Assembly: GCA_026395315.1 (NCBI GenBank)
Contig: JAPLYY010000069.1
Location: 1 to 39,416 of the forward strand
DNA: 39,416 nucleotides
Reading direction: 5' to 3'
Source of the DNA: Candidatus Shapirobacteria bacterium
Lineage (GTDB): Bacteria > Patescibacteriota > Microgenomatia > UBA12405
In this document: one piece after another, positions 15,366 through 39,284 of the stretch
Position numbering within the stretch: the stretch's first letter is position 1
Layout: every line of letters begins with the position of its first letter
Made by a program: the position numbers and the translations under genes
Notes under the pieces: generated by a model
Database searches by the model: none
What the model was told of the DNA's origin: nothing
The model's input: only the letters and a program-made list of their open reading frames with translations

Positions 15366-15433
15366 TATTCGAGGGATTTTGTCTACCCCAAATAAATTAA
15401 TAATCTTAAGCTTGGCTATTATAACACAAAGAA

Positions 15434-16027: not shown

Positions 16028-16062
16028 GATTTTAATCTGTTGAATTGTTTTGATCCCTCAAT

Positions 16063-16178
16063 TCCGGCCGCGACCTATTTTCAGTCAAGTTTACACGAGA
16101 CCTACCGTCAGCGCTGAAACGTTTCACTTCTCTGTTCGGAATGGGAAAAGGTGGTTCCATCTCGCTCTCACGACCGGA
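16063..16178 (-). rRNA. rrf: 5S ribosomal RNA.
   Basis: The reverse complement contains CCCATTCCGAACAGAGAAGTGAAAC and a closing helix TCCGGTCG/CGCGGCCGGA. An additional 12-bp flanking stem pairs 16051-16062 with 16179-16190. Confidence 0.9.
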
Positions 16179-16249
16179 ATTGAAGGATCAATCGAAAAAT
16201 ATAAATATATTTGAAATTAAAATAACTTTAAAGTCTTAAAAAACTTATT

Positions 16250-16309
16250 CCTCCCTGCCCTGCCTGCCCGCCTCTGGAGGGTCAAGGGAAGGGTTGGGGA
16301 AGGGTTTTT
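16250..16309 (+). repeat. Family A-like element in the 23S-5S spacer.
   Basis: Sequence cctccctgccctgcctgcccgcctctggagggtcaagggaagggttggggaagggttttt. Its 28-nt tail is identical to that of 25745-25782. Confidence 0.8.
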
Positions 16310-16310
16310 A

Positions 16311-16329
16311 GCGACTAAATTGAGTTGCC
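16311..16329 (-). promoter_or_regulatory. 23S processing stem, 3' arm.
   Basis: gcgactaaattgagttgcc is perfectly complementary (19/19) to 19669-19687. Confidence 0.8.
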
Positions 16330-18116
16330 CGAAGCTTCTAATCCGCCTGTGGCGGACTAAAAGCCTCAATCAAGAAATTCTTCAACCATTTCGCCACTTA
16401 GCTTAATACCTTACGGTACTTACACATGTGGTTGTTAACCGGTAGTCTCCCGGCGGTCTTTCTTCTGACTTGCGCCAGAACACGATTCCTTATCTTAGGG
16501 TTAGCTTCCTGCTTGAGATGCTTTCAGCAGTTATCTAGATAGAAACGTAGCTACCCAGCAATGCTCTTGATAGAACAACTGGCACACCAGCGGTTTCCTC
16601 GTCTAGGTCCTCTCGTACTGTAGACGAATCCCTTCAAGAATCGAACGATTACATCGGATAGAGACCGAGCTGTCTCGCGACGCTCTGAACCCAACTAACG
16701 CAGCGCTTTAATGGGCGAACAGACCAACCCTTGGCCCCTTCTTCAGGGCCAGGATGCGCCAAGTCGACATCGAGGTGCCGAACCGCATCGTCAATATGAA
16801 CTATCGGATGCGACTAGCCTGTTATCCCCAGAGTAGCTTTTATCCAGTAAGCCCGTGCCCATACCAAATGGGTCACGAGGATCACTAAAACCTTCTTTCG
16901 AACCTGTCTTCAGTCTCAAATAAATCTGAACTGAAGATTCACCTTGCGGTGAACTCGACTAGTATGTCTCGCAGTCAAGCCAACTTATGCTTTTGCGCTT
17001 CCAGTCCGATTTCCTGCCGGACCAAGTTGACCTTTGTGTACCCGCGTTACTTTTTTGCAGGTGCCTGCCCCAGGCAAACTAGCAACCATACACTGTTCCC
17101 CCCGAAGATTCATTCGGGAAGGTTAGACTCAAATATAAACAAGGGTGGTGTTCCATTGTCGCCTTGCGGCTCCCACCTACACTCGACAATATTTATAGTC
17201 TTATCAATGTAAAGATCCAGTAAAGCTTCATGGGGTCTTTTTGTCCTGATGTAATTAAACGGCATCTTCACCGCTCTTTCAATTTCACTGGATAGATGGT
17301 TAAGACAGTTGCGCAGTCGTTGGACCATTCATACGGGTCGTAACTTACACGACAAAGGACTTCGCTACCTTAGAACAGTTAGAGTTACCGCTGACGTTTA
17401 CCAGGGCTTATAGGACAAGCCGTTCCTTGCGGATTGACTCACCCTTTTAACCTTCTGGCACCGGTCAGGTTTCAGCCCATATACATCCCCTTACGGGTTA
17501 GCATGGACCTGTGTTTGTGGTAAACAGTCGCCGCGCATTCTTTTGTTGTAACCCGAGGGTTAACTCGGGCAGGGTATCTTGCATAGCTTACACCCAGTTT
17601 GTTTGCCAATTTCCTTAACCATCTGTCTTCCAATCACCTTAGTCTACTCGACTAATCCACCAGTGTCGGTTTTGGTACGAATTACCGGTAATCTATTTGC
17701 GACGCTTTTCTTGAATAGATAAGTTCAGTTTAATTGCTCGCCTTACGGCAAACTCTTATTCGTGCTTCGCTTTGTGACGAAAAGGCGGATTTTCCAACCC
17801 CTTCTGGCTTCACACTTAAATGGTCAATCATTAGACCACTAAACCTCTCACCCATCGTTACGCCCCAACTTAAAACGATTACCAATAAGTACTGGAATAT
17901 TAACCAGTTATCCATCCACTACGCCAGCACTATACTGGCCTCGTGTTAGGATCGACTAACCCTCAGACGAACAACGTAGCTGAGGAAACCTTGGATATTT
18001 CGGTGGGGCAGATTCTCACTGCCCTCTCGTTACTCATGTCCGCATTCTCACTTGTTGGCGCTCCAGTAGACCTTACAGCCCGCCTTCACCGCCCCAACAA
18101 CGCTCTCCTACCGATC

Positions 18117-18444
18117 GATGGACAACACCAAAAAGACATTATTTTTTTATTACTCTTACTATCGGCATTCTTCCCCACGCTGACTCAACTATAAAATCAA
18201 ACCCCGCATAAACCGCACTCCACGCAGCTGCTGTTTCTAAACTATTATGTCCGACCACGCCGACAACCGTTCCAATAGTTACTCCCCTAATTACAGACAA
18301 CGCGATGCGTTTTCTGATTGGCTCAACCTTTCCAGGTCTTTTGGTAACGTCAACGGCATAATTCGCTAGCCTTAATATTTCGGTCATAATAGTATTATTA
18401 TAACATAAACAATTTTTTTTAATATCTTCTTAGTGTTGTCCATC
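18117..18444 (-). other. Intervening sequence/expansion in 23S helix 45, closed by a 12-bp stem.
   Basis: GATGGACAACAC (18117-18128) pairs with GTGTTGTCCATC (18433-18444). In rRNA sense it lies just upstream of the conserved GGTAGGAGAGCGTT. The interior is A/T-rich and unlike rRNA. Confidence 0.8.
18139..18387 (-). CDS. 82-aa ORF inside the 23S helix-45 insertion, with a small hydrophobic Gly-zipper-like segment.
   Basis: ATG start, same strand as the rRNA, with TATAAT 9 nt upstream (18397-18402). The sequence contains GVTIGTVVGVVG. No known family was recognised. Confidence 0.4.
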   Translation of the reverse strand: MTEILRLANYAVDVTKRPGKVEPIRKRIALSVIRGVTIGTVVGVVGHNSLETAAAWSAVYAGFDFIVESAWGRMPIVRVIKK

Positions 18445-19157
18445 TATCCTCCAACTTCGGCACTAGGTTTGAGCCTCCTTACATTTTAGGCGCAAATTAC
18501 CGACCCCGATTGCTCGGAGTCGAACAGTGAGCTATTACGCTTTCTTTAAAGGATGGCTGCTTCTGAGCCAACCTCCTGTCTGTCTTAGGTAATCCACTAC
18601 CTTTCCCACTTAACCTAGATTTAGAGGCCTTAGATGAGAGTCTGGGGTCTTTCCCTTTTGCCCGGCCAGCTTAGCCCGGTCGGACTGACTGCCTGACTAG
18701 AAATTACGGTATTCGGAGTTTAGTTAAATGCCTGAGCTTGCGCTCAAAACATTCATCCAGTAGCTCTACCCCCGTAATTCACCATCAGACGCTATACCTA
18801 TATATATTTCGGAGAGAGCCAGCTATTCCCACTTTCGATTGGCATATTACCCCTAACCACAAGTCATCGGACAGATTTGCAGCTCTGATCCGTACGGGCC
18901 TCGTACCGACTTCCATCGGTATTCACCCTGCTCATGGTTAGCTCAAGTGGCTTCGGGTCATCCCCGCTTACCTATTCGCACTATTCGTACTCGCTTTCGC
19001 TACGCCTCCACCGGCTTAGCCGGATTAGACTCGGTAAACAAGAACACTCGCGGACTCATTCTTCAATAGGCACGACATCATTCTCGACTTACGTCGGAAC
19101 TCTGTCTGTTTGTTAGCAAATGGTTTCAGATCTATTTCATTCTGCGATTTGCAGTGT

Positions 19158-19196
<39 letters not shown>

Positions 19197-19668
19197 CGCT
19201 GAAGTATTTAGTCTTGGAGCTTGGTCGCCCCGGATTCCCAGGACATTTCACGTGGATCCTGGTACTTAGGTATCTAGCCGATCTTTACAGGTATTTCAAA
19301 TACGGGACTCTCACCCTCTTTGGTAGTCCATTCCAGAACTTTTTTCTATACTTTCAAGACTTTACGCCAGACCCTGCAACACCCCGATAAATCGGGGTTT
19401 AGACTGTTCCCTGTTCGCTCACCGCTACTAAGGGAATCTCATACGATTTCTTTTCCTCCGGGTACTGAGATGTTTCACTTCCCCGGCTTACCCACCTCGC
19501 CTTGCGGCGGGTTCAGTCTGATTGCTCAGACCGGTATTTCTACATTCGGAATCGGTCGGATCACCGTTTGTTGGCAACTCCCCGACCTGTTTCGCCACCT
19601 ACTGCGTCCTTCTTCGGCTTCAGCAGCCTAGGCATCCACCATTTGCTTTAAATAAATTTCTTGATTAT

Positions 19669-19687
19669 GGCAACTCAATTTAGTCGC
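19669..19687 (-). promoter_or_regulatory. 23S processing stem, 5' arm.
   Basis: ggcaactcaatttagtcgc is complementary to 16311-16329. Confidence 0.8.
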
Positions 19688-19889
19688 CAATATTATGTTA
19701 AAGCCGGCCTATTAAACAGGCTTTAACTTTTAATTTCAATATCATTTGACACGGACAAAAGTGTCATAGATATTTATATTCTCGATTCAACAGATTGTTA
19801 AAGTGTGACCCCGACTTTCATCGGGACAAGAATTAATTTCCGACCGGAACTACTCTTCGTAATTCGTAATTCGTAATTTTTAATTCTCT

Positions 19890-19966
19890 TGGTGGACCTG
19901 GGGAGATTCGAACTCCCGACCTCCTCATTGCAAATGAGGCGCTCTAACCAACTAAGCCACAGGCCC
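19890..19966 (-). tRNA. tRNA-Ala (anticodon UGC) with an encoded CCA end.
   Basis: The reverse complement is GGGCCTGTGGCTTAGTTGGTTAGAGCGCCTCATTTGCAATGAGGAGGTCGGGAGTTCGAATCTCCCCAGGTCCACCA. It folds as a cloverleaf and has the G3:U70 pair. Confidence 0.95.
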
Positions 19967-19995
19967 AAGCCTGCACAGACCCTATTTAAATGTGC

Positions 19996-20020
19996 AAAAA
20001 AATAGCCGCGACTCGCGGCC
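19996..20020 (-). terminator. Strong intrinsic-terminator-like hairpin, 30 nt upstream of tRNA-Ala.
   Basis: The minus strand reads GCCGCG-AGT-CGCGGC followed by TATTTTTTTG. Confidence 0.65.
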
Positions 20021-20099
20021 AAAAGCTCTATCTCTCCTAGGGTTCACTTAAACCTAATTTTCCCATTCCGATAAGAAGCTTTCAGCATTAAGTGGAAGT

Positions 20100-20128
20100 A
20101 TTCTACCTAATCTGAATCTGTAAATCAA
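20100..20128 (-). promoter_or_regulatory. Sigma70-type promoter upstream of the tRNA-Ala/23S/5S operon.
   Basis: The minus strand reads TTGATT, a 17-nt spacer, then TAGAAT. Confidence 0.6.
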
Positions 20129-20168
20129 CGACTTAATGTTTCGTTTTTAAAGTAGGGGTTTAGCTCGC

Positions 20169-20816
20169 CTAAACCCGTCTTTTTGATTTTACCCACTCCA
20201 TCATAATCGGCACCACTGAAATCAATACAATCACCACCACCACTAATTCAAAATTAGCTTTGACAAACGGTATGTTTCCAAAAAAGTAACCTCCAAATGT
20301 AAATAATGTCACCCACAATAAACCTCCGACCGCATTATAAGAAATAAATTTGCCGTAATGCATTTTCCCCACTCCCGCCACAAACGGCGCAAATGTTCTC
20401 ACTATCGGCACAAATCTCGCCAAAACAATCGCTATCCCGCCATGTTTATCGTAAAACGCTTGGGCTTTATCCAAATATTCTTTTTTTAATAACCCCGATT
20501 TCATCGTAAAAGCTTTCGGACCAATAAAATGACCGATCCAGTAATTAACCGTATCGCCGACAAACGCCGCTAGCACCATCAAAAACCATAATAAATATAT
20601 ATTAAAGCTCCCTTGGCTCGCCGTAGCGCCAGCGAAGGCGGCGGCCGCAAACAACAAACTGTCCCCCGGTAAAAACGGTGTCACTACCAACCCGGTTTCC
20701 ATAAATATCACAAACCACAACATCGCATACGACCACCCGCCAAAATTGGCAATCACCAAGGCTAAGTTCTTATCAATATGCAGAAACAAATCTATTAGCG
20801 TCTTAATAAAATTCAT
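20169..20816 (-). CDS. DedA family membrane protein.
   Basis: 215 aa and multi-TM, with the DedA-type segments PFLPGDSLLFAAAAF and ARFVPIVRTFAPFVAG. TATACT lies 5 nt upstream of the ATG. Confidence 0.9.
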   Translation of the reverse strand: MNFIKTLIDLFLHIDKNLALVIANFGGWSYAMLWFVIFMETGLVVTPFLPGDSLLFAAAAFAGATASQGSFNIYLLWFLMVLAAFVGDTVNYWIGHFIGPKAFTMKSGLLKKEYLDKAQAFYDKHGGIAIVLARFVPIVRTFAPFVAGVGKMHYGKFISYNAVGGLLWVTLFTFGGYFFGNIPFVKANFELVVVVIVLISVVPIMMEWVKSKRRV

Positions 20817-20838
20817 TTCATAGTATATCTAAAAATTC

Positions 20839-20880
20839 GGCTCCCCTGTCAAGGGGAGCTCCCGTAGGGTGAGGGGTTTT
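20839..20880 (+). repeat. Family A element, variable-hairpin subtype.
   Basis: Sequence ggctcccctgtcaaggggag-CTCCCgtaGGGTG-aggggtttt. It overlaps the GH18 stop codon by 2 nt. Confidence 0.9.
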
Positions 20881-22102
20881 AATTCATTTTTTCTTTCACC
20901 AGCTTCCACAAATCCTTATCTTCCCCCTCATATCCCAACGCCCAAAATCCTACTCCCCCCACCTGCGATTGTTTGGCCAGATCCAACTTCGCTCCCATAC
21001 TGTCCATATTTTCAAAATATGCTTGGTAAGTTCTGGTTATTGGTACTGGTACACTCTGCCACCCATATTTTTTTGTTTTCTTATTCAACACCCTGACCAG
21101 CTTCTGAGTAGACTCCTCGTTTTTAAAACTAACCCACGGCGTCATACTCAGTTCATCCCAATTCTGAACAAAATCAGTAAAATTAGCATATGTCCCGTCC
21201 GCCATTCTCTGCTTTGACTCATTCCAGCTCACCATCCGGCTCCAGTTCTCAACTACTTTCGATTCAAACACTGCCTCAGTTGTCCGCCATTGGTATCCAT
21301 AAAGTGGATATGCCAATACTATTTTGTTTTTTGGTAACTTAGCCTCAATTATCTTTTGGGTTACTTCGGTAATATTTCTTTCTCCGGGCACTGAATTTAT
21401 CGGTGCCACCGGCCCGGCAAAATCCGAACTTGGCTGATGAAAGTCATAGGCCATCACTATAACTTTATCTACCACATTGGCCAACTTTGTTAATCCTACC
21501 GAATCTCCTTTTATCACTGTGTTGGCAAACACATCAATACTGATTTCTCCCCCTACTTCTTTCTTAAATTCATCCAAAAACCCCAAAAAATCATCACTGA
21601 GTACTCTCACCGGATCGCCCATATATTCAAAGTCGATATTAATCCCGTCATAATCCGCCACTTGAGAAATTGCCTTAGTTTCGTCTAAAAGAGTTTTTCT
21701 GGCCGATCCCGACGACACCAAACTATCGATTAATTTAGTGTCAAACAGTTTGATTCCTAAAATGTTCTTACCCCCGTTCTTTTTTATTGTTGTCTTCATT
21801 GTCAGGTAATTCTCATCGTTTATTTTTTTGCCTTGAACATCCCAAATTAAATTACCACTGCTCCCTACATCCACCCCTAAAAAAATCAACTGATCTAAAA
21901 TTCCGTCGTAATTTTGCGTTTTCCCTACCATCCACGTTGGCAAAAACCCGATTATCTCCGGAGTATCTCTCTTAAACACTCCAAACTTTTTCTCTCCCAC
22001 CCAGGGACTGATCAAATTGACTTTTTTTTGCCAAATTATTACCCCCAATCCCATTAAAATTAATAACACCACCCCTATTCCTAACCACTTCCACCACACC
22101 AT
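20879..22102 (-). CDS. Glycoside hydrolase family 18 (chitinase-like) protein with an N-terminal membrane anchor.
   Basis: 407 aa with the catalytic-type motif YDGINIDFEY (DxxDxDxE) and an N-terminal TM segment WLGIGVVLLILMGLGVII. Confidence 0.85.
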   Translation of the reverse strand: MVWWKWLGIGVVLLILMGLGVIIWQKKVNLISPWVGEKKFGVFKRDTPEIIGFLPTWMVGKTQNYDGILDQLIFLGVDVGSSGNLIWDVQGKKINDENYLTMKTTIKKNGGKNILGIKLFDTKLIDSLVSSGSARKTLLDETKAISQVADYDGINIDFEYMGDPVRVLSDDFLGFLDEFKKEVGGEISIDVFANTVIKGDSVGLTKLANVVDKVIVMAYDFHQPSSDFAGPVAPINSVPGERNITEVTQKIIEAKLPKNKIVLAYPLYGYQWRTTEAVFESKVVENWSRMVSWNESKQRMADGTYANFTDFVQNWDELSMTPWVSFKNEESTQKLVRVLNKKTKKYGWQSVPVPITRTYQAYFENMDSMGAKLDLAKQSQVGGVGFWALGYEGEDKDLWKLVKEKMN

Positions 22103-22227
22103 TAACTCTTAATTACCTTCTCCAAGGCAAATTTTATCGTCCGAAACACGTTCCCAATTGAACCGAAGGCAATCAACCCCATTGCCGCCACCATTCCCAT
22201 TATCCTGACTAATGTCCACTTCTTCAT
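22102..22227 (-). CDS. Possible 41-aa membrane peptide, below the ORF-track cutoff.
   Basis: Hand translation gives MKKWTLVRIMGMVAAMGLIAFGSIGNVFRTIKFALEKVIKS. Its TAA overlaps the GH18 ATG (TAATG). Confidence 0.35.
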   Translation of the reverse strand: MKKWTLVRIMGMVAAMGLIAFGSIGNVFRTIKFALEKVIKS

Positions 22228-22256
22228 AACAATATTCTACATTAATAATAAATTTA

Positions 22257-22298
22257 GGTGGGCCTGCCCGCCGTAGTTCCGATTTATCGGAACGAAGG
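22257..22298 (+). repeat. Degenerate A-like element abutting the tRNA-Ile 3' end.
   Basis: Sequence ggtgggcctgcccgccgtag-TTCCGATttaTCGGAA-cgaagg. It resembles 12004-12059. Confidence 0.45.
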
Positions 22299-22372
22299 TG
22301 GGTGATAATAGACTCGAACTATTGACCCCCGTCTTATCAGGACGGTGCTCTAACCAACTGAGCTAATCACCC
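22299..22372 (-). tRNA. tRNA-Ile (anticodon GAU), CCA not encoded.
   Basis: The reverse complement is GGGTGATTAGCTCAGTTGGTTAGAGCACCGTCCTGATAAGACGGGGGTCAATAGTTCGAGTCTATTATCACCCA, which folds as a cloverleaf. Confidence 0.95.
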
Positions 22373-23479: not shown

Positions 23480-24604
23480 TTATAAACCTCCCTTTTGAAG
23501 GGAGGATTCCGACTTTACGTCGGAAGGTGGGTTTAGTTCTGCTAAAAATTTAACTATTTCTGCCGGCACATCAATCCCCGTCGCTTTCATAAAACCCCTA
23601 AACTGCGGCCCCTTATTTACTTCTAAAATCACATAATCCTTCGGATCATTAGACATTCCTTCTGTGGCTCCCCTGTCAAGGGGAGCTGGCCGTAGGCCTG
23701 AGGGGTTTTTTGCCATTACATCTACCCCCGCCACCGATAATCCACACACCTCTGCCGCCTTCACCGTTAATTGTTTTATATCTTCCGGTAAATCAGCAAT
23801 TTCCACCTTTCCTCCCGTCGAATAATTGTTTCTGAATTCCCCCGCCAGTTGGCGGGTCCTCTTCATCACCCCCAACACTTTCTTTCCCAATATCAACACC
23901 CGATAATCCCCATCGTTGGGAATATATTCCTGCAGCATATATCTTTTCCCTTCTTCCGTTTCCGATTTTCGTAACTTAATTACCAATTTTTCTAATTCAT
24001 TTAAATTATCGGCTTTATATACTCTAGTCCCACGATCACCACCTGAACCTTTTATAATTATTGGAAAAGTAAAGTAGGGGTTTGGCTTGCCCAAACCCTC
24101 ACTCATAATTTCATAAAGATACCAAAGACTCCCATATGTGCTTTTCGGCACCTCAATCCCCGCTTTTTTTAACGCCAACATCTGCCACGCCTTACATGCC
24201 ATACTCGGCTTCCCACCTAACACCAACGGATCCACCACAATCGGTCCTTTCGTGGCTCCCCTGTCAAGGGGAGCTGGTCCGCCAGCTGGCGGACCTGAGG
24301 GGTTTAATCCGCCAACGATAAGGTCCACTTCTTCCCAATGTTTCCCTGTTGTTCTAAAAAATAAGACATCATAGTCATTTATATCCAGCCATCCCTCATT
24401 TTTGATTGTATGGACAGACCGGTGTGTCTGTCCCTCCACATCACTCAAATTACCTCGGATTTTGACCTTTTGTTCTTGAGTATCAAATGTCACTCTGTTA
24501 TAAGACACCAAATCCAATCTTACTCCCATCTTTTTCGCCGCTTTCTTAATCAACACCAAATGTTGGCTTATTTTTCCCCCAAAAAACAATGCAATTTTAT
24601 TCAT
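23480..24604 (-). CDS. RimK-like ATP-grasp ligase (paralog B) with four repeat-derived segments.
   Basis: ATP-grasp core: FPIIIKGSGGDRGTRVYK, GDYRVLILGKKVLGVMKR, GLSVAGVDVM, VILEVNKGPQFRGF. Confidence 0.85.
   Translation of the reverse strand: MNKIALFFGGKISQHLVLIKKAAKKMGVRLDLVSYNRVTFDTQEQKVKIRGNLSDVEGQTHRSVHTIKNEGWLDINDYDVLFFRTTGKHWEEVDLIVGGLNPSGPPAGGPAPLDRGATKGPIVVDPLVLGGKPSMACKAWQMLALKKAGIEVPKSTYGSLWYLYEIMSEGLGKPNPYFTFPIIIKGSGGDRGTRVYKADNLNELEKLVIKLRKSETEEGKRYMLQEYIPNDGDYRVLILGKKVLGVMKRTRQLAGEFRNNYSTGGKVEIADLPEDIKQLTVKAAEVCGLSVAGVDVMAKNPSGLRPAPLDRGATEGMSNDPKDYVILEVNKGPQFRGFMKATGIDVPAEIVKFLAELNPPSDVKSESSLQKGGL
23487..23534 (+). repeat. Family A element, variable-hairpin subtype with a TTTG loop.
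   Basis: Sequence CCTCCCTtttgAAGGGAGGat-TCCGACtttacGTCGGA-aggtgggttt. It supplies the C-terminus (NPPSDVKSESSLQKGGL) and stop of paralog B. Confidence 0.85.
23666..23708 (+). repeat. Family A element inside the paralog B CDS.
   Basis: Identical to 12620-12662. It is read as NPSGLRPAPLDRGAT. Confidence 0.9.
24254..24305 (+). repeat. Family A element inside the paralog B CDS.
   Basis: Sequence ggctcccctgtcaaggggagct-GGTCCGCCagctGGCGGACC-tgaggggttt. It is read as NPSGPPAGGPAPLDRGAT. Confidence 0.9.
24407..24438 (+). repeat. Family C palindromic element inside the paralog B CDS.
   Basis: Sequence tgtatGGACAGACcggtgtGTCTGTCCctcca. It is read as VEGQTHRSVHT. Confidence 0.85.
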
Positions 24605-26126: not shown

Positions 26127-26958
26127 AACCTTTTTTCCGTATCGCCTTTGCAAATCTTTTTATCTCCACTAATCTAATCCCCGTATAACTTCCCACCAGC
26201 AGATTAACTACTAGTACTACTATTAATGTCAATTCCGGCTGCCCGATCACCCACTCCTGTACTTCCCTTACTCCCATCAACAACGCTCCTGCCACTGCTA
26301 AAACCAAAGTTCCTAAAGTTAAAGAAAATGCCTCTTTTCTACTTTTAGCCAATTGGGTTCTGGAAAACTCTTCTACTAATAGGACCATAAATAACACCGG
26401 AAAAATCGATATCTTACTCAGATCGAACAATTCAAGATAGGACGTCCCGATCATTAATCCGAAAGTCCCTACTGAAATAAACAATAAATTAATCGATCTT
26501 GCCGGCCAAAAATGTAATTTGAATCTTTTTAGCAGGTAATTGCTCACAATCGACACTATCAAAACGGTGGCAAACAATAGTACTCCCCCCAATATCCCCG
26601 TCGCCAAAAACACCACCGCAATCATTGTCGGAATAAATATGCCGTAACCCGACAATCCCACCATATAATGTAATACCGACACAATCGTGGCCACCAACGG
26701 CAACATTAACAACAATACAATTGTATTCGACGCTACTCCCCGATCAATTCCGATCCGTATCAATTTTTGAATCGAATTAAATCCGTTCCATTTCATCGTT
26801 TCCGCTTCCATTAAATTATTACTCTTTGTCAATAATGTCGGCGTAACCACGTTTGACGTGGTCGGTGTCACCACTATCTGTTTCACCGCTATCACGTCAA
26901 TTTTTGCCCAAACTAACCACCCCAAACACACCAATATTAAAATTATATATTTTTTCAT
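26125..26958 (-). CDS. 7-TM membrane protein of the type associated with ATP-grasp/retropepsin clusters (7TM_transglut-like).
   Basis: 277 aa with a signal/anchor and about 7 helices. GIFIPTMIA, LLVEEFSRT and the terminal GSYTGIRLVEIKRF resemble that family from memory. Confidence 0.65.
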   Translation of the reverse strand: MKKYIILILVCLGWLVWAKIDVIAVKQIVVTPTTSNVVTPTLLTKSNNLMEAETMKWNGFNSIQKLIRIGIDRGVASNTIVLLLMLPLVATIVSVLHYMVGLSGYGIFIPTMIAVVFLATGILGGVLLFATVLIVSIVSNYLLKRFKLHFWPARSINLLFISVGTFGLMIGTSYLELFDLSKISIFPVLFMVLLVEEFSRTQLAKSRKEAFSLTLGTLVLAVAGALLMGVREVQEWVIGQPELTLIVVLVVNLLVGSYTGIRLVEIKRFAKAIRKKG

Positions 26959-27041
26959 TGAATTGTGGCGTATTATAACACTCCTTTTGCCTTTCTTTCC
27001 CCTTGTTTAATTTTTTACTCACATTTAGTATACTTCCTTTA

Positions 27042-32050: not shown

Positions 32051-34147
32051 CTATTTTGACTTCGAAACTCTTTTAGCCGCTTCATTCTGAATTAGTGATC
32101 GTTCAGCAAACCGAAAAAATCCTCCGTGTAACATTTTTTCAATTTCTTCTCTTTTCTTCTTTTCTGGCACCAATCTCGGTAATTTTAAAATTCCACCTAA
32201 AACAGATCCATAATCTAATTCACTCCTAAGATTGATCATCAATTTTGGACTTCTTACGATACCCAAAGAATTCAATATTAGCCATCCAAAAGATTCAGCA
32301 CTATCCAAATCATCAAACAGGACCTCTCCAGTCTTAGCTGATTTTATTCCTCTGAATTTTGCTAGTAAGTCCGCCAAATCATTTCCCCACTTACTAACAT
32401 TTTTGCCTAATTCCAACGGTGTTTTACCCACCGCATAATTATAGAACTTAAAATAAGTATCCCAATTATCTCCATAATTTCCAAACAAGTTTGAATCTGC
32501 ACTACCAAACACTATTTTTTTCTTGTCCACCAATAATTGTGCCATCGACTCAAATGTTGGAACAGTTTCTTTTTTAGCATTTAATTTCGTACCCACTTGA
32601 ACCTTAATTGTCTCCAACATACTCATACCTATTCTTTCCGGAAAAGGTTTCAGTGTTCCGCTTTTTAATGCCGCTAAAAAATCATTCCTTGTATCATCCC
32701 AAGTCATCAAATCCGCAAACCATGCTCCTACATATTCACCCCAGCCCTCCTCTATTCCTTGGCTTTTTTCTTTATCAGCATCTGGTTTTACCCCAAATTT
32801 TTGTTTGGCTTTAGCCAGAGGGTGCATCATTGCTCTTATTTGTTCTCCGAATACATTTGCGCATCCACCTCCAATATCCCTATCATTATCTGCCGACTCC
32901 ATTACATTCGATACATACAAAAAGTTCCAAGACATTGCTACTGACGCCTTCGCATCTAACTCAGATATATTCATAGTAGTCATAACATAATCCACCAATC
33001 CTTTTTCATAATCCCTAAAACTTGCCAACGCTTTATCCCAACCAACTTTATTAGGATCATTATCTTTTGGCACTAAAAATCCTCTCCAATCAATATCACT
33101 CTTTTTCAACTTCAAGAACCCTTTACCATTCACCTCAAAAAAATCATTTACAATCGTTTCCATTGACTCTCTAACTCCTGGAATTTCATAAATCAAAGCC
33201 AGCTCTCTCTCTGTCAACTTTAACCAATTGTTCTTTTTGGCCGCTTCACCATCTAAAGAAGCTACCTCTTGTTTTATATAAGATGCGTTAGTTAAATTCA
33301 CTCTTGCCCGTACCACTTGTTGCCACTCGCCCACCCCACCATTAAACCAATCTGGTGGACGTTTAAACCAAGACGGAGGAAATGTATCCAATTGTAGTTG
33401 AATTGGCTGCTGAATAAATTCCGCATTTACAAACGTATCGTATGTCGATTCAGACTTACTCTCTCCACTAGTCAAAGCATCTACTAAAGACTTTAATTGT
33501 TTTTCCAGTTCGCTACTCACCCCACCTCCGCCAGGAGCAGGAACAACTACTCCTTTATTTTTTTTCACCATCGTTTGGCAATACTCCAAAGCCAACACCA
33601 ATTGCTTTCTGTCCTCACTACCCGGGGTAATCCGTGACCGCATATTAACTAACTCCGCAATTGCCGGCTCAAAAAAGGCTTCATTATCAATTTGATCCAA
33701 CACCGATCTTATATCTGGATTTGTAAAAGCCTTGTTTCTCACTTCTCTCGCCAACAACACCAAGTCTGTCGGTAAAGCACCCTCAATGTTAGTAGTTATT
33801 CCAGTATTTAAAGCACCACTAAGACGAGCATCTCCACCGTCCCTCATTATCAATAAAAGGCCATCAGTCAAATAACTTTGACACTGTATTGCCGCATTGT
33901 CACCCTGCTCCGCCGCTCTTTGCAAAGACGCCATGTCGTGGAATCTATTAAAACTTACATTTTCAATCAACTTTCTAGTATTCTCCGATGTTAATGCGTT
34001 GCCGTTTGTTGGATCAAGAATATCTGTTCTGAAACGATTTGCAATACCAACTACAGCTCTTTTATAGCCTTCATCAACTACATTTTTACCCAAAAAGGCT
34101 TGTTCCGTATATTTTTGTCCTACACCTTTAATTTCTTTTGCTGCCAT
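32051..34147 (-). CDS. Large soluble hypothetical protein (698 aa).
   Basis: Uninterrupted ORF with ordinary composition. No TM segment and no recognisable motif. Confidence 0.75.
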   Translation of the reverse strand: MAAKEIKGVGQKYTEQAFLGKNVVDEGYKRAVVGIANRFRTDILDPTNGNALTSENTRKLIENVSFNRFHDMASLQRAAEQGDNAAIQCQSYLTDGLLLIMRDGGDARLSGALNTGITTNIEGALPTDLVLLAREVRNKAFTNPDIRSVLDQIDNEAFFEPAIAELVNMRSRITPGSEDRKQLVLALEYCQTMVKKNKGVVVPAPGGGGVSSELEKQLKSLVDALTSGESKSESTYDTFVNAEFIQQPIQLQLDTFPPSWFKRPPDWFNGGVGEWQQVVRARVNLTNASYIKQEVASLDGEAAKKNNWLKLTERELALIYEIPGVRESMETIVNDFFEVNGKGFLKLKKSDIDWRGFLVPKDNDPNKVGWDKALASFRDYEKGLVDYVMTTMNISELDAKASVAMSWNFLYVSNVMESADNDRDIGGGCANVFGEQIRAMMHPLAKAKQKFGVKPDADKEKSQGIEEGWGEYVGAWFADLMTWDDTRNDFLAALKSGTLKPFPERIGMSMLETIKVQVGTKLNAKKETVPTFESMAQLLVDKKKIVFGSADSNLFGNYGDNWDTYFKFYNYAVGKTPLELGKNVSKWGNDLADLLAKFRGIKSAKTGEVLFDDLDSAESFGWLILNSLGIVRSPKLMINLRSELDYGSVLGGILKLPRLVPEKKKREEIEKMLHGGFFRFAERSLIQNEAAKRVSKSK

Positions 34148-34208
34148 ATGCTGGAATTATACCAAATCACCCTCATATATCCCATAATTAAAAACATACC
34201 TTATCTTC

Positions 34209-36021: not shown

Positions 36022-39000
36022 TTATTTTTTCATAAACTCCTCAAATTCCTTGTCATCCAAGCTCTCTTTTTCTACCAGTACTTTCGCCAAATCATCCAAT
36101 TTCTTCCTGTCTTTGGTTAATATCTCGCTGGCTCTCTGAAGCGCCGTCCCCACAAATTTTTTAATTTCATTATCCACCTTTCCCATCATTCCGTCCGATA
36201 TTTTTGCCGGTTCAAAATAAGCTCTGCCAAAATCACTCACATCTATCTGCGGCCCCATATTCACCGGTCCCAAATCCGACATTCCCCACTCGATGACCAT
36301 ATTTCTGGCAATATTAGTCACCTGTGAAATATCGCTGGCCGCTCCGGTAGTCATATCTTTAAACACCAGCTCTTCTGCCGCCCGTCCCCCCATGGCCATG
36401 GCCATTTGTTTAATCAATCTCGATTTTGTTTCGTGCACCCGGTCCATCTTTGGCGGAATTAGGGTAAATCCCAGCGCCATTCCCCGTGAAACGATCGAGA
36501 TTCTGTGTACCGGGTCCAAATCTTCCACATAATTTACTATCGCGTGTCCGGCCTCATGATAAGCCGTCATTAATTTATCCTCATCCGTTTGATCCCGTCT
36601 TTTTTCCGATCCCAGTTTCACTTTTAACGCTGACTCTTCAATATCCTGCATCTCGATTTCTGTTTTATTCTCTCTGGCCGCTTTGATCGCCGATTCATTC
36701 AGCATATTTTCCAAATCCGCTCCCGAAAAGCCCACCGTTCTCCTGGCTACTGTTGTCCAATTTACTTCTTTGGCAAAAGGTTTGCCTTTGGCATGAATTT
36801 TAATTATTTGTTCTCTGTCTTTCAAATCCGGCATTTCTAATATCACTCTCCGGTCAAATCTTCCCGGCCGCAATAGTGCCGGATCCAATAAATCTCCCCT
36901 GTTTGTTGCCGCCAGCACCACCACTGCCGTATTGGTTTCAAATCCGTCCATTTCCACTAAAATTTGGTTTAATGTCTGTTCTCTTTCTCCGTGTCCGCCG
37001 TCTAAGCCCCCCCTCATCCGGCCGATAGCATCAATTTCATCAATAAAAATAATTGCTTTTCCGGCTTTTTTGGCCGTCCCAAATAAATCCCGCACCCGCG
37101 ACGCTCCCACTCCTACCAGCATCTCCATAAATTCCGATCCGGCCATTGAATAAAACGGTACATTGGCCTCGCCCGCTACCGCTTTTGCCAATAGTGTATT
37201 ATGGTTTACTAGTCCATTTCCCACAAAGGAATGGTTTCTTGGCACTGTAAAATCATAAACCACTGCCTTACTTTTACTTTTCTCGCTTACTTTAGAAAAA
37301 AATAATTTACTCTCTAAAATCCTTTTAAAATAATCGACCCTTTCCGATTTATACCCCACATTTTTACAATATTTTACAAACACAGCCAACATGTTTCTCG
37401 ATATTCTTCCGTCTCTTCGAACATGACCAATCCTTTTTGACCATAGTTCATTACTCATTTTCTTATTTGACAAGATTTTCCATTCGATATCGATCAATCC
37501 ACCCAAGCCATAAAATAAGTCAATATTGGTATTACTTTTCCCACTTATCTTATTAACCATCGCACTTAACCGGTCTTGTTTTCTTTTAATCGCAAAACCC
37601 ACCTTATTTTTATATTCTGCCAAATAATCCCCTGTTATGGTCAATCTATATACCTGTTTTTTCCCTTTTTTTTCAATTTTGTCTTTAATCTGCAAGCTAG
37701 AAATTATTCCCAAGTTCAACAACATCATTTGTACCTGTCTTATTAATGTCCTACTTACACTTGTATATTCTATTGTCGACCTATTTTTCTGCATATGTCC
37801 ATCAGTATCAAATAACCCTCGAATAAATGCGCTCATTACCCCCTTACTGCCCTGGGTCACACTCTCGGGAACTTCTTTATCAAAAGACAATAAATATGAC
37901 ATTCCCATTTTGTACAAATCCTTTTTAAATCTCCAATTGGTTACGACATGATCATATTTTCCATTTTTATATATTTTTGCTTCTGGATACCTTTCTGTTA
38001 CATATTTACCAAAAAAATTAACCAGCTCTTCATCAGCGTTGGTCAATCCCACCCTACTTGATACTGACAAATTTCCATCGCCCGTCAATACCCCCAACAA
38101 ATATCCCGTTTCTGCATCAATATCATTTCTGTTTCCAAACATCTCCTGTCCAAAACTGACCGCCACTGCGTCCCCAACTTCAATTTCTTCTAATTTTTTG
38201 AATTTTAACTTTCCTTCCTCCATCACCACCACCGGATGTTCAGGTGTTCCTTCTAGTTCGTACCCCTGACATAATTTAATCTTTCTCGTCTCTTGTTCAC
38301 CTAAGTTGTACCATTTACTAGCCCTATTTTTCTGCATCTCTGTTTTTTCTATATCCAAACTGCTCACTTTTACTCCAAAAGTGTTACCACTTTTTTCCAC
38401 CTGATAATATCTCGGCACTTTCTCAATCTCCATCAATCCCTTATTAGTCAAAATCAGAGTTTCCCCGATCACACATTTACCCACCCCTGCCGGCCCCACC
38501 AGCAACACTCCTCTGGGCGCCCTTGCTCCCATCTTCCGGTATTTTTCCGGATGTTTCAAAAAATCCACTACTTCCACTAAATCTCTTTTGGCTTCTTCCA
38601 CCCCCGCCACATCTTTAAAAGTTAGATTTTGTTTACCTTTGACAAACAGCTTAGCGGTTGACTTTCCAAACCCAAACATTCCTCCGGCTCCGCCACCACC
38701 CGCCTGCCGGCTGAAAAACCACACTATAAACGCAATTGGTAATCCCACCGTTAACACCAAACTCAATATATCCATTAATGTTTTCCATCCCTGTTGATTC
38801 TCCACATTAAATTTGACTTTTCCTAAATCAATTCCTTCTCTCTGCAAGATTTCCGCCATCGAGGTTGACGGTTCCTTTGATGCCACCAGAATCTTTTCTT
38901 GGCTCGCCGAAGTCCCTGACGAAGGCGGCAATTTCACCATAATTTCATTATCCAGTACTGTTATTTCCCCCGCCTGCCCCGCTTTAATTGTTTCAATTAT

Positions 39001-39246
39001 GGTTGATAATGGCACACTTTCCGTTGTCTGTGGCACGAAGATCTGTTTTAGAATCGAAATCGCCCAAAACAACATAATTAAATACAATACTCCCTTAATA
39101 ATTTGACTTGGCCCAATCTCAATTCTCTTAATTTTTACTCCCGGTGGCAAATTATCCGTTATCTCTTTAGGAATTTCCTGTTTTTTTTGGACTTTAGGCT
39201 TTAGACTTTTTTTAATTTTCTCCCAAATTCCCTCTTTCTTTATCAT
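36022..39246 (-). CDS. ftsH: ATP-dependent zinc metalloprotease FtsH, interrupted by an intein.
   Basis: Two N-terminal TM helices, split Walker A GPAGVGK/TLLAKAVAGEA, Walker B IIFIDEIDA, SRH ATNRGDLLDPALLRPGRFDR and zinc site HEAGHA. The extein length is 648 aa. Confidence 0.95.
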   Translation of the reverse strand: MIKKEGIWEKIKKSLKPKVQKKQEIPKEITDNLPPGVKIKRIEIGPSQIIKGVLYLIMLFWAISILKQIFVPQTTESVPLSTIIETIKAGQAGEITVLDNEIMVKLPPSSGTSASQEKILVASKEPSTSMAEILQREGIDLGKVKFNVENQQGWKTLMDILSLVLTVGLPIAFIVWFFSRQAGGGGAGGMFGFGKSTAKLFVKGKQNLTFKDVAGVEEAKRDLVEVVDFLKHPEKYRKMGARAPRGVLLVGPAGVGKCVIGETLILTNKGLMEIEKVPRYYQVEKSGNTFGVKVSSLDIEKTEMQKNRASKWYNLGEQETRKIKLCQGYELEGTPEHPVVVMEEGKLKFKKLEEIEVGDAVAVSFGQEMFGNRNDIDAETGYLLGVLTGDGNLSVSSRVGLTNADEELVNFFGKYVTERYPEAKIYKNGKYDHVVTNWRFKKDLYKMGMSYLLSFDKEVPESVTQGSKGVMSAFIRGLFDTDGHMQKNRSTIEYTSVSRTLIRQVQMMLLNLGIISSLQIKDKIEKKGKKQVYRLTITGDYLAEYKNKVGFAIKRKQDRLSAMVNKISGKSNTNIDLFYGLGGLIDIEWKILSNKKMSNELWSKRIGHVRRDGRISRNMLAVFVKYCKNVGYKSERVDYFKRILESKLFFSKVSEKSKSKAVVYDFTVPRNHSFVGNGLVNHNTLLAKAVAGEANVPFYSMAGSEFMEMLVGVGASRVRDLFGTAKKAGKAIIFIDEIDAIGRMRGGLDGGHGEREQTLNQILVEMDGFETNTAVVVLAATNRGDLLDPALLRPGRFDRRVILEMPDLKDREQIIKIHAKGKPFAKEVNWTTVARRTVGFSGADLENMLNESAIKAARENKTEIEMQDIEESALKVKLGSEKRRDQTDEDKLMTAYHEAGHAIVNYVEDLDPVHRISIVSRGMALGFTLIPPKMDRVHETKSRLIKQMAMAMGGRAAEELVFKDMTTGAASDISQVTNIARNMVIEWGMSDLGPVNMGPQIDVSDFGRAYFEPAKISDGMMGKVDNEIKKFVGTALQRASEILTKDRKKLDDLAKVLVEKESLDDKEFEEFMKK
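37198..38475 (-). mobile_element. 426-aa intein with a LAGLIDADG homing-endonuclease domain, inserted in the FtsH P-loop.
   Basis: Begins with Cys (GVGK|CVIGETLIL) and ends with HN|T (GLVNHN|TLLAKAV). Contains TPEHP (block B) and LLGVLTGDGN plus FIRGLFDTDGH (LAGLIDADG motifs). Confidence 0.9.
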
Positions 39247-39252
39247 CGTCAG

Positions 39253-39258
39253 ATTATA
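39253..39258 (-). promoter_or_regulatory. -10 box 6 nt upstream of the ftsH ATG (leaderless-type start).
   Basis: The minus strand reads gcTATAATctgacgATG. Confidence 0.5.
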
Positions 39259-39284
39259 GCATTTTAAATCACTAATTCAGCTTA

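Follow-up and report, generated by a model that had tools for sequence, protein, structure and literature searches.

RNase III-excised intervening sequences (IVSs) in helix 45 of the 23S rRNA have been known for 35 years, this helix being one of the two classical IVS sites (helix 25 is the other), and to our knowledge the S23p family represents the only recurrent cargo of such elements, a family without known function that is possibly not translated. Among the closest described systems is the helix-45 IVS of Coxiella burnetii, which measures 428–444 nt, possesses a 28-bp stem and an open reading frame (ORF) on the sense strand, and is cut out by RNase III in vitro, the 23S being split into pieces of about 1.2 and 1.7 kb (PMC4990558). 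In bacteria of the candidate phyla radiation (CPR), a survey of rRNA genes encountered many short, non-intron insertions at known IVS sites, which were read as probable IVSs, and insertions in CPR rRNA genes were reported to be removed from the transcripts (PMC11270868, citing Brown et al.). In the present study, we analysed a 328-nt insert carrying an 82-codon ORF in the 23S rRNA gene of a Candidatus Shapirobacteria bacterium (CPR, Microgenomates), located on a DNA stretch of 39,416 nt (GenBank assembly GCA_026395315.1, contig JAPLYY010000069.1; the whole stretch is hereafter referred to as the window). The insert is an IVS in helix 45 with an RNase III-type stem, a sporadic distribution and a cargo that is new to databases, all of which is secure; we infer, in addition, that it is excised, that its ORF is transcribed from an internal promoter and that this ORF is translated. 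In its full form the picture, i.e. that of an excised helix-45 IVS carrying a genuine gene, is considered rather probable. Elements of this kind are already known, the CPR included; what is new is the cargo and the occurrence of a genome-typical leaderless promoter inside an IVS.

Alignment to the Rfam model identified the insert as the sole large insertion of this 23S gene (Table 1). When the covariance model was rerun on positions 17950–18620, the insert was placed in its entirety as one insertion in the loop of the hairpin at model positions 1206–1226, directly 5′ of GGUAGGAGAGCGUU. In the established secondary structure of the 23S rRNA this hairpin is helix 45 (about 1164–1185 in E. coli numbering), which is where the first-pass annotation of this DNA, made from the sequence alone, had located the insert. 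The assignment is based on the Rfam model, the route via E. coli numbering having been dropped; the only match of the 23S segment of the window in the E. coli collection was a foreign, truncated 23S on a 2750-bp ‘plasmid’, which was unusable for site numbering. That record (L056, NZ_AP027888.1), catalogued as a circular E. coli plasmid, contains nothing but a 5′-truncated 23S that does not look E. coli-like, and is probably an assembly or contamination artefact. The insert had also been described as A/T-rich, a description that holds for the 32-nt leader of the ORF (9% guanine plus cytosine, GC) and for the ends of the stem arms, to which strong A/T richness is confined; the insert overall is only moderately A/T-rich (39% GC vs 48% GC in the remaining 23S), and the ORF has 43% GC, as in the genes of this genome. 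A second, small lineage-specific 23S insertion of 18 nt (cuccgagcaaucgggguc; ~18504–18521, minus strand) was noted ~60 nt on the 5′ side of helix 45, at position ~1152 of the Rfam model.

The stem that closes the insert consists of 25 contiguous pairs, 22 of them Watson-Crick and three G·U, followed by one mismatch and then three further pairs (28 in total), and the corresponding inverted repeat (I1) has arms of 29 nt. The perfect 12-bp stem that had been reported initially (GATGGACAACAC/GTGTTGTCCATC) was confirmed and occurs only once in the window, but understates the length of this duplex. Direct reading of the arms revealed that all three non-Watson-Crick pairs are G·U on the rRNA sense strand, while the other strand would have A·C at these positions; the constraint on the stem therefore looks to be exerted at the RNA level, and the pattern fits selection on the RNA. 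Folding of the whole insert yielded a z-score of −4.9 relative to shuffled sequences, the entire excess being due to the closing stem. The 278-nt loop alone displayed no excess fold stability (z = −0.81), and the closing stem is therefore the only structural signal of the element, and the idea of a structured RNA in the loop interior was rejected. A segment within the ORF, spanning about codons 45–50, is complementary to the start-codon region (inverted repeat I2, Table 1), and this pairing, which is statistically unremarkable, could render the AUG inaccessible once the IVS RNA has been excised. Additionally, the flanks of the 23S gene itself are complementary to one another and form a 19-bp stem. 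A stem of this type between rRNA flanks is the usual substrate of RNase III during rRNA maturation, and its presence here is indirect evidence of RNase III-type maturation of this rRNA, and thereby indirect support for the proposed excision of the insert. The insert, with its position in the loop of helix 45 and its stem of 25 pairs, thus presents the anatomy of an RNase III-excised IVS at a classical site, as in Coxiella and as originally proposed.

The predicted ORF of 82 aa is present on the rRNA sense strand. Together with its leader it fills the loop, 88% of which is coding sequence, and its stop codon coincides with the first three bases of the 3′ arm. Among 5000 dinucleotide-shuffled versions of the insert, 0.26% contained a sense-strand ORF of 82 codons or more (p = 0.0026), and 1.9% contained one on either strand. 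To score coding potential, 19 genes of the window were used to train a second-order Markov model with 3-periodicity, under which the ORF attained +15.0 bits in frame, as against −55 and −50 in the other sense frames and −6 to −51 in the antisense frames. This score equals the median of leave-one-out 249-nt segments of real genes and exceeds that of all 210 off-frame segments, 99% of the antisense segments and 97.6% of 83 shadow ORFs, while negative scores were obtained for all 21 other reading frames of 40 aa or more within the 23S gene. Among stop-free random ORFs of the same dinucleotide content, 0.3% reached +15 bits (p = 0.003). Furthermore, the first codon position of the ORF is occupied by a purine in 80% of cases, as in real genes. 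An exact-sequence look-up retrieved only two Logan contigs, each 100% identical to the window, and on these independent contigs (L036 and L037; ~1.1 kb) the 82-aa ORF was the only gene called by a gene caller.

The TATAAT reported 9 nt upstream of the ATG was confirmed and was found to be part of an extended −10 element, TGTTATAAT, from which transcription is predicted to start at about position 18390 with a leader of about 3 nt. The motif TGNTATAAT occurs five times on both strands of the window (1.5 expected), and all four copies other than that of the IVS are located upstream of real genes in the correct orientation, at a distance of 6 nt from the start of the FtsH gene, 8 nt from that of the gene at 34147, 13 nt from that of the gene at 26958 and 85 nt from that of the S1 gene. 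As a working definition, a gene was regarded as leaderless-type if TGnTATAAT or a close −10 ends 5–13 nt before its start and no Shine-Dalgarno sequence is present; the IVS ORF belongs to this class, with TGTTATAAT ending 9 nt before its ATG, and shares its layout of a −10 close to the start and no Shine-Dalgarno sequence with the gene starts at 39246, 34147 and 26958. Across 257 kb of sequence from the lineage, a reading frame of 60 aa or more begins 3–15 nt downstream of 11 of 23 such sites (a count that includes the IVS ORF), and TGnTATAAT 5–13 nt before an ATG is common in this Shapirobacteria lineage (relatives L016, L020, L022, L023, L026 and L027). The earlier observation that bona fide genes of the window have the same short-leader layout was likewise upheld, as a −10-like hexamer is present 4–10 nt before the start of 7 of 20 window genes vs 4.9% of all ATGs; among ATGs in an A/T-rich context the frequency of such a hexamer is 17%. 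The chance of encountering the full motif at a usable spacing amounts to ~0.002, a rough estimate derived from the base composition of the A/T-rich leader. Since ORF length, coding score and promoter motif each correspond to a probability of ~0.003, a chance ORF is unlikely, and these three largely separate statistics favour the 82-aa ORF being a real coding gene. In the literature, nothing directly useful was found on leaderless translation in the CPR.

A palindrome, GCTCCCC-TTGACA-GGGGAGC, with variants such as CCCTTCCC-TTGACA-GGGCAAGGG, was observed in 16 copies in the 39 kb, including those at 20855(−), 24649(−), 39301(−), 12636(−), 4668(+), 6051(+) and 14194(−). It forms a hairpin with TTGACA as its loop and is mostly situated at gene boundaries, with intragenic copies at 23682, 24270, 12834 and 25762. 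Its candidate role as the −35 of the leaderless promoters was rejected, as the distance between it and the −10 is not constant (19 and 34 nt) and it is also found within genes and at gene ends; the palindrome looks like a repeat of the repetitive extragenic palindrome or terminator type, and not like a consistent −35.

The 82-aa product was searched for in databases, as had been suggested, and no homologue was found in any collection. No match to the protein was obtained with the Pfam, NCBIfam (E up to 10) or PADLOC profiles, while PHROGs returned one meaningless match (E = 0.2). Similarly, no homologue was detected in a word-indexed search of 5.8 billion clusters or in tblastn-type scans of JGI metagenomes, IMG/VR, phages, plasmids and the fetched loci. 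An exhaustive phmmer search of 1.84 billion representatives produced two matches to eukaryotic repeat proteins, both of which were discarded as artefacts (31 and 7 summed weak stretches). The profile of the S23p family (PF05635, 23S_rRNA_IVP) was not matched in Pfam/NCBIfam at E up to 10, and no LAGLIDADG, GIY-YIG or HNH domain was found in the ORF with Pfam, which as a control did recognise LAGLIDADG_1 in insertion ORFs of relatives; at the domain level, the product thus resembles neither a four-helix-bundle IVS protein nor a homing endonuclease, in line with the initial assessment. That the product is small and partly hydrophobic was also correct: it is basic (net charge +6), and one Gly-rich hydrophobic segment, at residues 28–46 (IALSVIRGVTIGTVVGVVG), exceeds the usual threshold with a Kyte-Doolittle value of 1.89. 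This segment is preceded by a Lys/Arg cluster, which makes an N-in membrane anchor possible, and the product may thus be membrane-anchored. A single-sequence AlphaFold2 model comprised three long helices and one short helix (predicted local distance difference test score 57.5, low confidence). A Foldseek comparison of this model with the PDB gave nothing at E < 1, and the top matches (hepatitis B virus core, complex II anchor and DgkA) were dropped as generic helical proteins. In a check for a type I toxin-antitoxin system, the sole antisense promoter-like site (18372–18401, plus strand) was found to face away from the body of the ORF, and no PADLOC match was obtained.

To place the insert in its lineage, relatives were retrieved by means of the S1 gene beside the 5S gene, which yielded 18 loci (74–86% protein identity), mostly labelled Candidatus Shapirobacteria (CPR, Microgenomates), with the gene order 23S-5S-S1 conserved in relatives. 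In blastn comparisons of the 23S of the window with these loci the alignment breaks exactly at the insert. Helix 45 is plain in seven genome relatives (18–31 nt), and 13 of the 18 metagenome contigs retrieved with a degenerate pattern for the 5′ flank carry a plain hairpin of 18–30 nt, so that the IVS-free 23S alleles to be sought in relatives were indeed found, in 20 relatives with a plain helix 45 of 18–31 nt. Three other relatives possess inserts of 133–165 nt at the same site (L014, on the same contig as L047; L044; L045), which have a GC content of 20–31%, form one long hairpin each, encode ORFs of at most 12–18 aa and are unlike the insert of the window in sequence. No related copy of the latter was detected in any collection searched. 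On the sequences compared, therefore, helix 45 has received insertions repeatedly in this lineage, alleles are as a rule free of an IVS, and the insert of the window is unique.

The 23S genes of relatives carry insertions of 280–850 nt at other sites (Table 1), all of which are absent from the 23S of the window. The ORFs of two of these (L016 and L028) match Pfam LAGLIDADG_1 and those of two others (L012 and L024) display the same motif by eye, while the 283-nt insert of L014 has no long ORF. In L012, the region corresponding to positions 565–1610 of the window 23S is replaced by 197 nt, and ~1 kb of 23S is apparently missing; this gap may be a misassembly. Several public contigs of metagenome-assembled genomes labelled uncultured Gammaproteobacteria (L017, L024 and L028), Bacteriovorax sp. 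(L025) and Parcubacteria encode an S1 that is 75–86% identical to that of the window (L011, L013 and L021 are also in this set), and L024 and L028 retain the Shapirobacteria-type order 23S-5S-S1, which indicates that these contigs are probably mis-binned or mislabelled. Within the window, a LAGLIDADG_3 endonuclease domain is present in an intein of the FtsH homologue (AAA and Peptidase_M41 domains; 36022–39246, minus strand), which owes its length of 1074 aa to this intein.

The mechanism that we propose for the element starts from the pre-rRNA, in which the closing stem would be cut by RNase III without religation, leaving the 23S, here presumably the product of a single operon, as predicted pieces of 1218 and 1747 nt and freeing an IVS RNA of about 300 nt. 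The loop would represent a compact cassette, composed of the extended −10 element, a 9-nt spacer and the 82-codon ORF ending in the 3′ arm. Transcription of this ORF would start at its own promoter and yield a near-leaderless mRNA (leader of ~3 nt), as is proposed for many genes here, and the ORF is also carried on every pre-rRNA transcript; a transcript initiated at the internal promoter would lack the 5′ arm of the stem. As to its origin, it is plausible that a promoter-plus-gene cassette was inserted into the tip of a pre-existing hairpin IVS, and our best guess is that of a passenger gene using the dispensable, solvent-exposed tip of helix 45 as a safe harbour. The more specific proposal that a translated nested gene constitutes a new, non-S23p and non-endonuclease type of IVS cargo that is lodged in this safe harbour, is transcribed into a leaderless mRNA at its own extended −10 within the 23S transcription unit and encodes a small, basic and possibly membrane-anchored protein (e.g. 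toxin-like, addiction or ribosome-associated), is put forward tentatively, as a possibility that falls somewhat short of being probable.

The explanation that competes best with a genuine gene is that of an ordinary RNase III-excised IVS whose ORF is non-functional, being a chance frame or a decaying remnant, with the TATAAT as a by-product of the A/T-rich leader; we regard this as unlikely, albeit deserving of serious consideration. Several observations weigh against the gene and are in accordance with this explanation. The only other copies of the ORF are identical to it and no homologue was found in any collection, so that purifying selection cannot be shown; the exact 82-aa sequence was not found in a collection of 15 billion proteins, and there are no near-identical variants for a comparison of non-synonymous and synonymous substitution rates, although short ORFs present only in Logan may accordingly be under-represented in that collection. 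No Shine-Dalgarno sequence was found at the ORF and the best −35 matches in only four of six positions, a −10-like hexamer is not rare before ATGs in an A/T-rich context (17%, as stated above), and the structure model is of low confidence. Moreover, the internal promoter is on the sense strand and no terminator is evident behind it; transcription would continue into the 3′ part of the 23S and generate truncated 23S transcripts, and such read-through looks costly. There is also a precedent in the ORF of the Coxiella IVS, which is probably untranslated and decaying (PMC4990558). Conversely, a non-functional frame would have to combine a length, a coding score and a TGNTATAAT at leaderless spacing that each have a probability of ~0.002–0.003, while the further copies of this motif in the window all precede real genes, and the ORF-less IVSs of relatives are quite unlike this loop in base composition, folding and ORF length.

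A different possibility, judged improbable, is that the insert escapes excision and persists in the mature 23S, enlarging helix 45 at the surface of the ribosome as an expansion specific to this lineage. The tip of helix 45 does vary in length within the lineage (18–165 nt), and no rnc gene was found in the 39-kb window. However, an unbroken duplex of 25 bp represents a canonical RNase III substrate, as is known for the enzyme and as demonstrated by the cleavage of the Coxiella IVS in vitro (PMC4990558), the perfect 19-bp processing stem flanks the same 23S, the loop lacks the excess structure that would be expected of a structural rRNA expansion, and the reported removal of CPR rRNA insertions from transcripts (PMC11270868) also argues against retention. 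Finally, a mobile element, be it a homing-endonuclease element, a group I intron or a miniature transposon in which the ‘stem’ would be formed by the terminal inverted repeats, is hardly credible despite inverted repeats of 25–29 nt and the LAGLIDADG-encoding insertions at other 23S sites of Shapirobacteria relatives (PMC11270868), given that only LSU rRNA and no intron family was reported over the region, whether gathering thresholds or a relaxed limit of E up to 0.01 were applied, that no endonuclease or transposase domain was found in a product which at 82 aa is too small for either, that neither the arms nor the insert recur in the window, in the 500 kb of related loci or in metagenomes, phages or plasmids, that no target-site duplication is visible at the junctions, and that the arm mismatches, all G·U on the rRNA strand, point to a constraint at the RNA level.

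If the ORF is real, the genuine-gene reading would mean that the loop of an IVS can house an unrelated gene with its own promoter, and that a protein gene is nested in the sense strand of an rRNA gene in a reduced CPR genome. It would also offer a tractable case for the question of whether IVS cargo is ever expressed, and would point to an under-count of cargo genes in surveys of CPR rRNA insertions, since these counted an ORF only if it had a Pfam domain. The value of the case is limited in that it concerns a single orphan sequence without variants.

With respect to its surroundings, the 23S gene is followed by a 5S gene (16062–16178) and preceded by tRNA-Ala (19890–19966). The layout of the rRNA operon (16062–22372, minus strand) is unusual, as tRNA-Ile (22297–22372) is split from tRNA-Ala-23S-5S by two protein genes, one encoding a GH18 protein (20879–22102) and the other a VTT-domain protein (20169–20816). 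A 16S gene is absent from the window, and the Logan contigs of the same strain end at the boundary between tRNA-Ala and the 23S gene.

Table 1. Coordinates of the IVS, its host 23S rRNA gene and related features (positions refer to the window, or to the named locus in the case of relatives)
Feature	Coordinates	Strand	Basis
23S rRNA gene hosting the insert	16370..19662	−	Rfam LSU_rRNA_bacteria, 2216 bits, model positions 1–2925
23S processing stem, 5′ arm (pairs with 16311–16329)	19669..19688	−	19-bp perfect complementarity of 23S flanks
23S processing stem, 3′ arm	16311..16329	−	19-bp perfect complementarity of 23S flanks
IVS, 328 nt, terminal loop of helix 45	18117..18444	−	Covariance-model alignment; blastn breaks
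Closing stem, 5′ arm, GAUGGACAACACUAAGAAGAUAUUA	18420..18444	−	25 contiguous pairs with 18117–18141, minimum free energy and centroid folds; inverted repeat I1
Closing stem, 3′ arm, UAAUGUCUUUUUGGUGUUGUCCAUC (first three bases are the ORF stop codon)	18117..18141	−	Folds, inverted repeat I1
A/U-rich leader (9% GC) between 5′ arm and ATG, holding the promoter element	18388..18419	−	Sequence
Extended −10 element TGTTATAAT, ending 9 nt before the ATG	18397..18405	−	Motif match
82-aa ORF, ATG to TAA, rRNA sense strand, without detectable homologue	18139..18387	−	Length, coding statistics
ORF-internal segment, 13/14 complementary to start-codon region 18380–18393	18241..18254	−	Inverted repeat I2
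Other TGNTATAAT site	39253–39261	−	Motif scan
Other TGNTATAAT site	34156–34164	−	Motif scan
Other TGNTATAAT site	26972–26980	−	Motif scan
Other TGNTATAAT site	15418–15426	−	Motif scan
Insertion at another 23S site, L012	1026–1726
Insertion at another 23S site, L016	1175–1908
Insertion at another 23S site, L024	2530–3259
Insertion at another 23S site, L028	55–905
Insertion at another 23S site, L014	8953–9236

In comparison with known systems, the element is most readily set beside the IVS of Coxiella, and beside those of Leptospira, Brucella and Xanthomonas that likewise carry an S23p ORF, with which it has the helix-45 site in common. It resembles the Coxiella IVS in having an ORF on the rRNA sense strand that fills the loop, in occurring sporadically and in the size of the resulting 23S fragments (~1.2 and 1.7 kb, predicted here), while being smaller (328 nt vs 428–444 nt) and closed by a slightly shorter stem (25 bp vs 28 bp). 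The cargo, however, is different, as S23p proteins are four-helix bundles of about 115–130 residues (about 120 aa in the Coxiella-type protein), whereas the product described here measures 82 aa and matches neither PF05635 nor a four-helix-bundle family of NCBIfam. Furthermore, the ORF is preceded by a genome-typical extended −10, while that of Coxiella has a poor Shine-Dalgarno sequence that is lost on excision. With the ORF-less IVSs of helices 25 and 45, as found in Salmonella, Campylobacter and Alphaproteobacteria, and with the short non-intron insertions at sites 23IS2 and 23IS4 of CPR 23S genes, the element shares its site, its closing stem and its patchy distribution (PMC2801512; PMC11270868), and excision by RNase III without religation is presumed for both; those IVSs are simple hairpins of 100–170 nt without coding capacity, in contrast to the present loop of 278 nt with its host-like codon statistics. 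The group I intron-like insertions of the CPR that encode LAGLIDADG proteins (e.g. I-ShaI of Candidatus Shapirobacteria) are also protein-coding and are also situated inside a CPR 23S gene (PMC11270868). These insertions reside in the 3′ half of the 23S, measure 700–850 nt and combine an intron structure with an endonuclease domain, neither of which is present in the IVS of the window.

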